Source of the DNA: a virus
Taxonomy: Duplodnaviria; Caudoviricetes
Strand: one strand, 5' to 3'
Length of the DNA stretch: 64,000 nucleotides
IMG/VR virus record: IMGVR_UViG_3300032053_000004
Location: 1 to 64,000 of that record
This document shows positions 18,280 through 32,792 of the stretch, one piece after another; within the stretch, counting starts at the first letter, position 1, and the number at the start of each line of letters is the position of its first letter. The notes beneath the pieces were generated by a model. It was given only the letters and a program-made list of their open reading frames with translations. It was not told the DNA's origin and searched no databases. The translations under genes and the position numbers were made by a program.

Positions 18280-18630
18280 ATGACGAACCTTTACCCCTTC
18301 CTCTCCAAGGCCCAGATCTCCACCCGCATCGAGGAGGATCCCGCCTTCGCGCTGGAGTGTCTCCAGATCATGTGCTCGCGACAGACTGCTTTCGAGCAGG
18401 AGTCCAAGACCACGGTCGTGAAGAACCGGAGGGGCTTCATGAGCAGCCATGCCGTGAACGGCACCCTCCTGGCCGTCAAGGCTCGGACGGAGGGTCTCGA
18501 CGAGGTGGAGACCGCGAAGGCACAGGAGATGGTGTCTCACTACACCAAGCAGCTTGCGAGCCATTTCCGCCAGGAGGCTCTGGAGCGGGATCCTTCTCTT
18601 GCCGCAACGGCCCGGGTCTTCGGGGTCTAG
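18280..18630 (+). CDS. Four-copy paralog family protein, copy 1
   Basis: MTNLYPFLSK...RQTAFEQE...KNRRGFMSSHAVNGT...HYTKQLASHFR; AGGAG RBS. Confidence 0.85.
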   Translation: MTNLYPFLSKAQISTRIEEDPAFALECLQIMCSRQTAFEQESKTTVVKNRRGFMSSHAVNGTLLAVKARTEGLDEVETAKAQEMVSHYTKQLASHFRQEALERDPSLAATARVFGV

Positions 18631-18634
18631 CCCC

Positions 18635-18666
18635 AAGGGTGGAGGCCCGCGCCCTCCCCGCGTATC
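18635..18666 (+). promoter_or_regulatory. Repeated early-type promoter (drives candidate sRNA A)
   Basis: CGTATCGTGG variant shared with 19457. Confidence 0.6.
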
Positions 18667-18673
18667 GTGGGTT

Positions 18674-18796
18674 GGGCGCGGGCAGCCGCGCAGAGACGTG
18701 GGTTGGATGAGATCCCCAAATGGCGGCCGAAGCCCGGCGCGGTTTGGGGCGGGGAAAGCCACCTGAAGCTCGGCTTGACAGACCGGAGAGACGGTC
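18674..18796 (+). ncRNA. Candidate small structured RNA, copy A
   Basis: Paralogous to 19470..19567 with covarying stems and conserved GGGGAAMGCCACCTGARGCT core. Confidence 0.5.
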
Positions 18797-18840
18797 AAGA
18801 AGACTTTGAGGAACGATTCGTTGACCTGGAGGGAAATAAT

Positions 18841-19047
18841 TTGAAGAAGAGGTCAAAAGAAAGAGGGGACCTTCCTGGAGATATTGCTTGCGTCGGGGAC
18901 ACCATCCGGTTCCCGCATGGGAAAAGATCCTTTCGAGGCAAGGTCGTCTCTGTAACAGAGATGGCGGTAACAGCGAAAACAAAATCTGGCCGTCTTTATG
19001 GGGTATTTCGATCGGATGTGCAGGAGATTGAAAAGCTGGAGTTATAG
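18841..19047 (+). CDS. SH3/KOW-like hypothetical protein
   Basis: TTG start after GGAGG; VGDTIRF...GKVVSV. Confidence 0.55.
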   Translation: MKKRSKERGDLPGDIACVGDTIRFPHGKRSFRGKVVSVTEMAVTAKTKSGRLYGVFRSDVQEIEKLEL

Positions 19048-19050
19048 GTC

Positions 19051-19082
19051 AAAGCCGCAGGCGCGGGGTCTGTTGTCGTATC
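19051..19082 (+). promoter_or_regulatory. Repeated early-type promoter, leaderless
   Basis: AAAGCCGCAGG...CGTATC-N7-ATG. Confidence 0.8.
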
Positions 19083-19089
19083 AGGCGGC

Positions 19090-19410
19090 ATGACCAACCC
19101 CGCGCCCGAGTGTGCTTCCGTCGAGTCCTTCGTCGAATTCTGTCTCGACGATGAGCGCGATACCTTCTCTCACGAAGATCTGGTGGTTCTCAACTTCTCT
19201 CTTCGCAAGACCGTCGCCGTCTTGCGCGGGGAGCTTGAGGCATACGGTCTCAGGCTCGCGCCCCGGATTCCTCCGAAGAAGGTGAGGGGTTTTACGACCT
19301 CTTCCAACGATCGGTGGTTTGGACCGGGATCATGCCCTACGAGCGGGGGAGCCGCTTACGGAGCCATGATGACTTCCAAATACGGCTCCAAGGACACACC
19401 CTTCGGTTGA
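19090..19410 (+). CDS. Hypothetical protein
   Basis: Leaderless start at promoter +1. Confidence 0.75.
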   Translation: MTNPAPECASVESFVEFCLDDERDTFSHEDLVVLNFSLRKTVAVLRGELEAYGLRLAPRIPPKKVRGFTTSSNDRWFGPGSCPTSGGAAYGAMMTSKYGSKDTPFG

Positions 19411-19430
19411 AGGACGATGGGGGGGGGGGC

Positions 19431-19462
19431 AAAGGCGGAAGCCCGAGCCCCTCGTTCGTATC
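19431..19462 (+). promoter_or_regulatory. Repeated early-type promoter (drives candidate sRNA B)
   Basis: AAAGGCGGAAG...CGTATC. Confidence 0.75.
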
Positions 19463-19469
19463 GTGGACT

Positions 19470-19567
19470 GGACCCCGAGGGTGGCAGTCCTGCGCTTCGC
19501 AGGCCATACCTTGGGCGGGGAACGCCACCTGAGGCTGGGCGTGGCAGCTGGAGAGACAGCTATTTTT
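19470..19567 (+). ncRNA. Candidate small structured RNA, copy B
   Basis: Starts at promoter +1, ends in hairpin AGCTG-GAGAGA-CAGCT plus TTTTTT. Confidence 0.55.
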
Positions 19568-19580
19568 TCTGGAGGTTACC

Positions 19581-19727
19581 ATGACCGAAAACACCAAGAT
19601 TCCAACCGAAATCGTTCCCCTTCCTTCGTGGGAGGAGGCACTCATAGAACTCGATCGGAAGAATACCGAGCTCGCTCTCAAGAGGCTTGAGAATCCTCGT
19701 CCTTCTCGTCTTGGACGAAAGTTCTGA
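19581..19727 (+). CDS. Small hypothetical protein
   Basis: GGAGG RBS; stop overlaps next ATG. Confidence 0.55.
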   Translation: MTENTKIPTEIVPLPSWEEALIELDRKNTELALKRLENPRPSRLGRKF

Positions 19728-20847: not shown

Positions 20848-20918
20848 TGAGGCATCGTTCAACGGTAGGACAAGGGACTTTGAATCCCTGAATCTAGGTT
20901 CGATTCCTAGTGCCTCAA
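20848..20918 (+). tRNA. tRNA-Gln(TTG)
   Basis: TGAGGCA/TGCCTCA acceptor; AGGGA-CTTTGAA-TCCCT; GGTTCGATTCC. Confidence 0.92.
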
Positions 20919-30736: not shown

Positions 30737-31114
30737 TCAGCCCGCCGAGAAGACGACCCGTGTGGACCACGCCCTCTCCGCGATCGCCTTCAGGTCCGGG
30801 TTGGCCTTGATGGCCTCGACCCGGAAGTGCGACGCCAGCTGCTTGCTGTAGTGCGACGTCATGTCCTGCAGGCGCGCGATCTCGTGAGGCTCGAGCTCCT
30901 CACCGGCTCGGAGCTTGTTCGTGGCGGTCGTGCCGAAGACCGCGTGGCTGCACGACCAGCCCCGGCGGTTCTTGTTCACGGTCGTCTTCGCCTCCTGCTC
31001 ATACTCGGTCTGGCGCGACGTCATGATCTGCGCGCACTCCATCGCGAAGGACACGTCGTTGACGATGCGGGTCTTGATGTCGGACTTGGAGAGGAAGGGG
31101 TAGAGGTTGGCCAT
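30737..31114 (-). CDS. Four-copy paralog family protein, copy 3
   Basis: MANLYPFLSK...; C-terminus carries a small insertion relative to copies 2 and 4. Confidence 0.85.
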   Translation of the reverse strand: MANLYPFLSKSDIKTRIVNDVSFAMECAQIMTSRQTEYEQEAKTTVNKNRRGWSCSHAVFGTTATNKLRAGEELEPHEIARLQDMTSHYSKQLASHFRVEAIKANPDLKAIAERAWSTRVVFSAG

Positions 31115-31573
31115 GTTGTAAGTGCTCCTTGTAACGCCCGGTACGAACCGGGGGGCTCGATCTCCGCGCTGCGTCGTCGGCCCATCCGCCGTCGCAGCGC
31201 TCGGTGTCGCGCCCAATCCCCGATACGCGGGCAGGGGGCCGATCTACGAAACGACGCGGCGCGTCACGAGCAGGCCGGAAGTCCGAGTGCCGACCGCGTA
31301 TCGGGCCCTGATGATCAAGCCACCTGATTGAAAGTGAGTATACCATAATCTGAAGAGATATATGGTATACTCAAGCCGCAGATCTGCCCACCCTCGCTGT
31401 ATCGGTGAGTGCGCTAATGAAGCAAACCACGCGGGTGATGCCCGCTCCCCTCATAACCCAAGTAACCCAAGCCACCCAGGCGGATGACGGCCCCTAAGGC
31501 CCGACGCAATAGGGATCGCTTGGGTTTCGGCATATATGCCTAATCTTTAAAAAATATACCCTATACCTGAACA

Positions 31574-32222: not shown

Positions 32223-32585
32223 TCAGCCCGCCGAGAAGACGTCCGCGATCGCCTTCAGCTCGGGGTTGGCCTCGATGGCCTCGGCCCGGAAGTGGCTCGC
32301 CAGCTGCTTCGAGTAGTGGCTCACCATATCCTGGAGCTTCGCGATCTCGTTCGGCTCCAGGGCGTCGCGGCCTTCGGCCTGGAGCTTGTCAGTGAGCTTC
32401 GTGCCGTTCACGGCGTGCGAGGACATCCAGCCCCGGCGGTTCTTGTTGACGGTGGTCTTCGTCTCGTGCTCGTAGTCGGTCTGGCGCGACGTCATGATGA
32501 CGGCGCAGGCGAGCGCGAACTCGGCGTTTTCAAAGATGCGGGTCTTGATCTGGGACTTGGAGAGGAAGGGGTAGAGGTTGGCCAT
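32223..32585 (-). CDS. Four-copy paralog family protein, copy 4
   Basis: MANLYPFLSK...ADVFSAG; AGGAG RBS. Confidence 0.85.
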   Translation of the reverse strand: MANLYPFLSKSQIKTRIFENAEFALACAVIMTSRQTDYEHETKTTVNKNRRGWMSSHAVNGTKLTDKLQAEGRDALEPNEIAKLQDMVSHYSKQLASHFRAEAIEANPELKAIADVFSAG

Positions 32586-32792
32586 GTTGTAAATGCTCCT
32601 GATATTCAGACAGTCGGTGCCAGTGTGGTCGCAGCGGCCCATCCGCCGCGATCCCACCGCCCAGCCCCCGATACGCCATCGGGGGCCCGATCTCCGCGCG
32701 GGGGGCGTCGCGGCATCACCGCATCCGACCACCGCGCGCATCACCTGATACGCGCCCAGGGGCCCGATCTCCGAAATGACGCGACGCGTCAC

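Follow-up and report, generated by a model that had tools for sequence, protein, structure and literature searches.

The described systems closest to the RNA element reported here are the putL and putR sites of phage HK022, the nut sites of phage lambda, the RNase III hairpins of the T7 early mRNA, and the pseudoknots of tmRNA. The put RNA is made up of two stem-loops, with no pseudoknot, and is not known outside the HK022-like phages; the likeness lies in the two paralogous, promoter-proximal structured RNAs per phage, their covarying stems, and a presumed action in cis. Our element is set apart from put by description only, in that it has a pseudoknot and a near-invariant hairpin, is found in phages of several phyla, and abuts tRNA genes. 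The nut site of lambda (boxA plus the boxB hairpin) is likewise found downstream of early promoters, two per genome, and has a 5-bp stem with a purine-rich loop and a conserved block before it. However, the loop of our element is a hexaloop and not a GNRA-like pentaloop, it has no boxA consensus, no N protein is known for it, and its distribution reaches far beyond the lambdoid phages. The T7 hairpins resemble it in that they, too, are conserved, lie between genes where expression units of a polycistronic phage transcript meet, and would leave stable ends, but the stem of our element, at 5 bp, is much too short for RNase III. With tmRNA it shares an H-type pseudoknot followed by a hairpin, whereas the two copies that we studied have no acceptor stem, T-arm, or tag reading frame.

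The window analyzed in this study covers the initial 64 kb of a virus record of 202 kb in IMG/VR (G000), which has a CheckV completeness of about 47% and is therefore part of a huge phage. All 24 sequencing runs that contained the locus were DNA metagenomes of sediment; RNA runs numbered zero. The element occurs in the window as copy A (18714 to 18797) and copy B (19474 to 19562), and the order of parts is the same in both copies: the variable hairpin P1 comes first, followed by an H-type pseudoknot, a UGACA linker, and P3, a hairpin of 5 bp with the loop GAGAGA (Table 1). A preliminary description of this DNA had proposed two paralogous RNAs with a common core and covarying stems, and these structural elements were recovered. 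The core is a 24-nt sequence, GGGGAAMGCCACCTGARGCTSGGC, found at 18751 and 19517 only, in the window and in the whole 202 kb, against an expectation of zero. The two strands of P1 and of P3 pair as proposed in each copy, and the P3 loops are identical. CGGGGAA is conserved in both copies, and P2 is AAGCC/GGCUU in copy A and ACGCC/GGCGU in copy B.

Table 1. Coordinates of the two module copies, their promoter-like boxes, and the first open reading frames behind them.
Feature	Position in window	Strand	Description
Copy A promoter-like box	18641..18670	+	GGAGG (18641-18645), 15-nt spacer, CGTATCGTGG (18661-18670)
P0, extra 5' hairpin, copy A	18676..18691	+	GCGCGG-GCAG-CCGCGC; sequence and predicted fold; absent in copy B
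P1, copy A	18714..18749	+	Long irregular hairpin CCCCAAA/TTTGGGG (18714-18720/18743-18749); predicted fold; three base pairs compensated relative to copy B
H-type pseudoknot, copy A	18750..18775	+	S1 CGGG (18750-18753)/CCTG (18762-18765); S2 AGCC (18757-18760)/GGCT (18772-18775)
Linker, P3, and following A, copy A	18776..18797	+	TGACA; P3 GACCG-GAGAGA-CGGTC (18781-18796); matches the family consensus
First ORF behind copy A	18841..19047	+	TTG start, GGAGGG 7 nt upstream, 68 aa, weak sub-threshold DUF2187 match
Copy B promoter-like box	19437..19466	+	GGAAG (19437-19441), 15-nt spacer, CGTATCGTGG (19457-19466)
P1, copy B	19474..19515	+	Long hairpin CCCGAGG/CCTTGGG (19474-19480/19509-19515); starts 8 nt after the promoter box
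H-type pseudoknot, copy B	19516..19541	+	S1 CGGG (19516-19519)/CCTG (19528-19531); S2 CGCC (19523-19526)/GGCG (19538-19541)
Linker, P3, A, and T6, copy B	19542..19568	+	TGGC; P3 AGCTG-GAGAGA-CAGCT (19546-19561); T6 (19563-19568); terminator-like end
First ORF behind copy B	19581..19727	+	GGAGG (19571-19575), ATG at 19581, 48 aa

The T6 tract at the end of copy B had been recognized previously, and a terminator scan called this end terminator-like; as an intrinsic terminator it has a weak 5-bp stem followed by T6, and copy A is followed by AAGAAGAC, without a U-run. The ORF behind copy B is the first in a series of small ORFs on the same strand, which leads up to a tRNA cluster from 20848. The proteins encoded downstream of A and B gave no family above threshold, and a neighboring protein of 165 aa had no relatives in IMG/VR. 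Open frames starting from a GTG inside the promoter box do cross both copies, but a coding reading was rejected; A and B have no peptide in common because of a 1-nt indel between the core and P3 and because of the compensatory changes. Sequestration of the Shine-Dalgarno (SD) sequence by the pseudoknot loop was also rejected, as only interrupted 2-bp runs can form.

Covariation between the stems, part of the original proposal, holds when three metagenomic variants are set beside A and B: each stem difference among them is compensated. In these five distinct sequences 100% of the P2, P3, and pseudoknot-stem cells pair, and four pairs change on both sides, a number reached by 1 of 500 shuffles. 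Between A and B, three pairs at the base of P1 are compensated, as are three of the five pairs of P3 and the A-U to C-G change in S2. A pseudoknot had been suggested before, formed by an upstream (G)UGGC and GCCA(C), and this particular pairing found no support, because the upstream partner is absent in three variants with a short P1 (contigs L021, L022, and L025), where P1 is a hairpin of 4 to 5 bp. A different knot is found in both window copies, in which CGGG/CCUG pairs across the 5' strand of P2 in the layout S1, GAA, S2, one A, S1', six nucleotides, and S2' directly before the linker (in copy A, loop L1 is GAA and L3 is AAGCTC).

We searched for this architecture upstream of the hairpin in other phages in a strict form: S1, (G)AA, S2, 0 to 2 nt, S1', L3, and S2' abutting the linker. 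(A looser search gave 33% false positives and was discarded, and the pseudoknots of distant members were scored by script, their alignment with MAFFT being unworkable.) The strict pseudoknot was present in 12 of 93 instances among the matches listed, namely, A, B, and 10 others, against 0.17 expected from shuffled upstream sequence. Both of its stems covary, with nine S1 pairings (for example, CUGG/CCAG, GGAC/GUCC, and UGGU/ACCA) and four S2 pairings (AGCC/GGCU, CGCC/GGCG, CCAC/GUGG, and CACA/UGUG), so that the knot of CGGG/CCUG interleaved with AGCC/GGCU has covariation support from eight other phage lineages. The excess over expectation, together with the variety of the pairings, indicates that knot and hairpin together form a well-supported composite that recurs. 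P1 and this knot loop, ACCUGANGCUN, are peculiar to G000 and the L02x contigs.

Both copies are preceded by an exact copy of the 10-mer CGTATCGTGG, in agreement with the preliminary description, which had taken them for promoter-driven small RNAs. With one mismatch allowed, 11 copies of this box were observed against 2.3 expected. All 11 read GSAAR-N15-CGTATCGKGG, with the GSAAR pentamer exactly 15 nt upstream in each, and they are confined to 6.7 to 32.7 kb of the 202-kb record (window 6770 to 32675, both strands). The CGTA in the downstream half resembles the −10 element of ECF-type promoters. A sigma-factor region 2 was looked for in G000 and not found, and the sole sigma-like find there was a Sigma70_r4_2-like ORF at about 84.4 kb. 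Nine of the 11 boxes head straight into GGAGG and then an ATG within about 3 nt, which would give very short leaders. Copies A and B are the exceptions among the box-driven units: they start 8 to 45 nt past the box, and the leaders before their SD-led small ORFs are about 170 nt (A) and about 114 nt (B) long, with no further promoter box between either copy and its downstream ORF. Of the proposal of promoter-driven small RNAs, the box before both copies was retained, and a terminator-like end was found for copy B only.

Two further leaders of about 100 nt stand behind the same promoter box on the minus strand of the window (31113 to 31227 and 32566 to 32675). They precede two paralogues of a gene family encoding proteins of about 118 aa with the motif MxNLYPFLSK, and they have GCGGCGGAUGGGCCG in common, without the pseudoknot-hairpin module.

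The core was not found in IMG/VR by an exact or a gapped core pattern, and blastn of the locus against the INPHARED phages gave no match. A gapped pattern did identify nine contigs in sediment metagenomes, five of which (L019, L020, L023, L024, and L026) are strain variants of the window's phage at 97 to 99% identity, with too few SNPs in the region for a test of selection. The most variable stretch among these strain variants runs from a G-run at 19420 to 19430 up to the copy B promoter box (19419 to 19464), and in L020 the G-run is swapped for an insertion of about 440 nt (L020:2260-2702). The other four contigs (L018, L021, L022, and L025; the copies in L018 and L022 are identical) have no protein or other DNA in common with G000, yet their 53-nt module is 92% identical, which points to the RNA itself as the object of selection or exchange. 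P1 is shorter in these four, either GCCC-UUGC-GGGC or GCCCU-GAG-AGGGC, and the P3 stems are new and compensated. Two further matches from the contig pattern scan (L027 and L028) are about the number expected by chance, with neither in a tmRNA, and two others (L029 and L036) are coding-looking sequence without the stems; all were treated as chance.

In three of the unrelated contigs (L022:621-920; L021:300-910, minus strand; and L025:13170-13661) the surrounding sequence looks like a promoter-driven noncoding RNA of about 290 to more than 400 nt. It begins with a conserved domain of 125 nt, continues with the module and a variable insert, and closes with a tRNA-like domain of the tmRNA kind. 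This last domain comprises GGGCCUU, a D-loop analogue, a long arm, a T-arm, and AAGGCCC, without the G3-U70 pair, and the RNA was not called by ARAGORN or Rfam. A different recurrent promoter-like box, GGTTGATCC-N15-ACGTAC, occurs at many sites in L018, L021, L022, and L025, with an ATG only 6 to 9 nt after it, which implies leaderless mRNAs.

The hairpin at the 3' end of the module belongs to a wider family. Used as a pattern, UAGGCU(U)GACAG plus a hairpin with the loop GARAGA matched 16 IMG/VR loci, most of them adjoining tRNAs, and a shorter pattern, TGACAGNNCGGANAGACGNNC, matched at least 119 phage stretches in IMG/VR. The consensus of the terminal unit is UGACAG-NN-CGGARAGACG-NN-C-A, and 16 of the 22 hairpin positions are near-invariant across the at least 119 stretches of uncultured phages and the cultured phages. 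Among the matches listed, 89 of 93 distinct copies have complementary bases at both free stem pairs, against 14% by chance; the stem has an A after it in 66 of 88, and the sequence further out is barely conserved. Copy A fits the consensus exactly, and copy B fits it with UGGCAG and with the stem shifted by one pair; G000 has these two hairpin copies only. G-U wobbles among the matches listed are found on the module strand only, and a palindrome acting at the DNA level was ruled out by this confinement of the corresponding G-T wobbles to one strand.

The cultured carriers are Vibrio phages of about 60 kb, Gordonia phages of the genus Sourvirus, Ralstonia phage Gamede, and Iodobacter phage PLPE; Vibrio phages PS10B.1 and 1.103.O and Gordonia phage LittleMunchkin are among them. 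In these carriers the element lies in unannotated intergenic DNA, often with a tRNA or a T-arm-like element 70 to 110 nt downstream. The hairpin is present in 2 of 401 Pseudomonadota genomes, from which we conclude that it is phage associated. Copies A and B are thus elaborated members of a module that is spread over phages of several bacterial phyla.

The position of the hairpin relative to other genes is similarly regular. Of 89 copies among the matches listed, 15 have a tRNA that begins 2 to 8 nt past the hairpin and a further six have one within 150 nt, and every nearby tRNA that was called is co-oriented with the hairpin. An SD sequence with a start codon follows at 16 to 60 nt in 21 of 89 of the listed copies, and a U-run directly follows the hairpin in 7 of 89. 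One locus on the minus strand (L042:5812-6388) holds a phage tRNA array interleaved with two hairpins, each ending a few bases before the next tRNA; one gene of this array is tRNA-Ser-like, with a variable arm that resembles a second T-arm. A reading of the linker TTGACA as part of a sigma-70 promoter was rejected, as no −10 hexamer lies 16 to 18 nt downstream, and it is also contradicted by the several copies in which a tRNA starts 2 to 8 nt past the hairpin.

The Rfam search returned no family at the gathering score, and the whole window yielded tRNAs only, in line with the earlier failure to place the motif in a known class. With Rfam 15, positions 18500 to 19700 gave only chance-level matches to snoRNAs and miRNAs at an E value of ≤10, and the other module-bearing loci gave tRNAs only. 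The element was undescribed in the literature searched by sequence and by words. The suggestion of a new phage small-RNA motif has therefore survived in part: the element is structured, covarying, absent from Rfam, and found behind a recurrent promoter-like box, but it is not a pair of small RNAs specific to this genome. For the ribozyme and anti-defense readings of that suggestion, the results speak neither for nor against.

The relation of the module to tmRNA was examined in a complete 436-kb relative (G001), where a model of P2 and P3 (R2) has its best match, a weak one of 23 bits, in the last-pseudoknot region of a bona fide tmRNA (RF00023, 112 bits; tag ANDNGALRIAA). The knot topology at this match differs from that of the module, and the full module (model R1) was not found in G001. 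This tmRNA (L033:1271-1647, at about 141.4 kb of G001) has the G3-U70 pair, and about 2 kb upstream of it are two adjacent tRNAs with UCA anticodons that ARAGORN called tRNA-SeC (L044:3904-4078). Huge phages are known to carry tmRNAs (PMC7162821). Neither ARAGORN nor RF00023 found a tmRNA in the window or G000, ARAGORN found no tag reading frame in G000, and no T-loop is present in copy A or B. In L021 and L025 the module precedes the tmRNA-like tRNA-like domain described above.

A second likeness is to rRNA. The family loop with its closing pairs, CGGAAAGAC, is identical to positions 2055 to 2063 of Escherichia coli 23S rRNA in standard numbering, the A2058 macrolide and Erm site; a 41-mer that contains CGGAAAGAC was confirmed as 23S rRNA. 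The window copies carry the G variant of the loop (CGGAGAGAC in copy A, 18784 to 18792). Since about 40% of the family, among the matches listed, has the loop GGAGAGAC, the identity may be due to chance. About 20 nt beyond CGGAAAGAC, the E. coli 23S rRNA also has UAGCUUGACAC, which resembles the linker and may be there by chance.

The interpretation that we consider most likely, and hold tentatively, is that the module is a boundary element that acts in cis on its transcript and governs its processing, the stability of its ends, or read-through. We infer transcription from the box, action in cis, and a role in processing or stability. Each locus would encode a leader at the 5' end of a small-gene operon in a huge sediment phage, transcribed from the phage-specific promoter GSAAR-N15-CGTATCGKGG and folding into a variable P1, a compact H-type pseudoknot, the UGACA linker, and the nearly invariant 5-bp hairpin with its GARAGA loop. 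The hairpin unit, with or without the pseudoknot, would mark the 5' boundary of expression units, whether tRNAs, tRNA-like RNAs, or ORFs; if the transcript is cut or terminated beside this stable structure, the structure would cap the RNA end on one side. In the window's phage the element would make up most of two promoter-proximal leaders, and P3 and T6 of copy B might double as a weak intrinsic terminator, attenuating read-through toward the small ORFs and the tRNA cluster at 20848. Such attenuation would not be common to both copies, since copy A has no terminator. A boundary role is suggested by the strict co-orientation, the narrow distances to tRNA 5' ends and ribosome binding sites, and the occasional use of the stem in a terminator. 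The hairpin cannot serve to protect the tRNA itself, because RNase P would remove a hairpin 2 to 8 nt upstream. Against a boundary role, it makes no sense for the copy inside a tmRNA, and it is hard to see what nuclease, if any, would recognize an element of 22 nt in hosts as diverse as Vibrio, Gordonia, and Ralstonia. The near-invariance of 16 of 22 positions exceeds the need of a stability hairpin and points to a specific partner. It is also possible, though less probable, that the UGACAG hairpin of 22 nt, whether or not a pseudoknot accompanies it, is a recognition signal for one partner conserved across bacterial phyla; this partner might be RNA polymerase, the ribosome or an rRNA-directed enzyme (the loop corresponding to 23S rRNA 2057 to 2062), or a tRNA-processing enzyme.

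Other explanations account for parts of the same evidence. Copy B, in which a promoter box is neatly followed by about 100 nt of structured RNA and then by a hairpin with T6, looks like an independent trans-acting small RNA, a promoter-to-terminator gene whose conserved loops would pair with or sequester an RNA or protein target, and in L021, L022, and L025 the module does lie within a promoter-driven noncoding RNA, the next gene having its own promoter. We regard this as unlikely: copy A lacks a terminator and continues after 43 nt into an SD-led ORF, most family members among the matches listed abut a tRNA or a ribosome binding site and are not free-standing, no complementary target was found, and the conserved loops are purine rich and identical across unrelated phages and hosts. 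A leader acting in cis is likelier than a discrete small RNA acting in trans because both copies enter an SD-led small ORF without a further box. Also improbable in our judgment is a cis element that modifies RNA polymerase, in the manner of put or nut, by processive antitermination or pausing through tRNA arrays and early operons. The promoter-proximal position of both copies in the window's phage, the recurrence of the element at the head of and inside untranslated tRNA arrays, the short purine-loop hairpin behind a conserved single-stranded block, and a U-run directly 3' of the hairpin in three cases would all agree with such a function, and a universal target, such as RNA polymerase or the Nus factors, would be in keeping with the invariance across phyla. 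The element bears no resemblance to boxA, however, its boxA-like GGCUU being base-paired and covarying, no N-like protein is known in the window's phage, and the distance of 2 to 8 nt to tRNA 5' ends is left unexplained.

Invariant junction and loop nucleotides between freely covarying stems, arranged around a compact pseudoknot, might also be expected of a ligand-sensing riboswitch, for which copy B has a possible terminator platform, or of a new self-cleaving ribozyme, which beside tRNAs could cut polycistronic precursors. Both are very improbable, as most members consist of the 22-nt hairpin alone with unconserved upstream sequence, too small for an aptamer or a catalytic core, and no known class matches in Rfam. 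Among self-cleaving RNAs, the hammerhead, twister, pistol, hatchet, and HDV-like classes gave no Rfam match; the CUGANGC in the pseudoknot loop differs from the hammerhead CUGANGA, and most family members lack it. With respect to a riboswitch, the downstream units are tRNAs, tRNA-like RNAs, and mutually unrelated small ORFs, and the many copies 2 to 8 nt before a tRNA leave no space for an expression platform. We give the least credence, and very little, to a mimic or decoy of host RNA, either the tmRNA pseudoknot or the A2058 loop of 23S rRNA, directed against a host factor or defense. It would draw on the best match of the module model in G001, inside a bona fide tmRNA, and on the identity of CGGAAAGAC to the E. 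coli rRNA at positions 2055 to 2063, but the former is weak and of different topology, RF00023 finds no counterpart in G000, and the latter is a post hoc 9-mer in a family in which the GGAGAGAC loop is so frequent among the matches listed.

Phage tRNA genes and early operons are widely annotated, and the element would be an RNA signal shared by their 5' edges; as an RNA family absent from Rfam, it is of value for annotation. Its conservation across at least 119 stretches and in cultured phages implies a specific molecular partner, and since cultured carriers exist, the question can be taken straight to the bench. Control of processing, stability, or read-through by the element, if real, would account for the expression of untranslated tRNA arrays in phages and would provide a portable RNA part. 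If the hairpin is indeed the signal for a specific partner, it would represent a new class of phage RNA signal controlling the making or protection of tRNAs and early messages.
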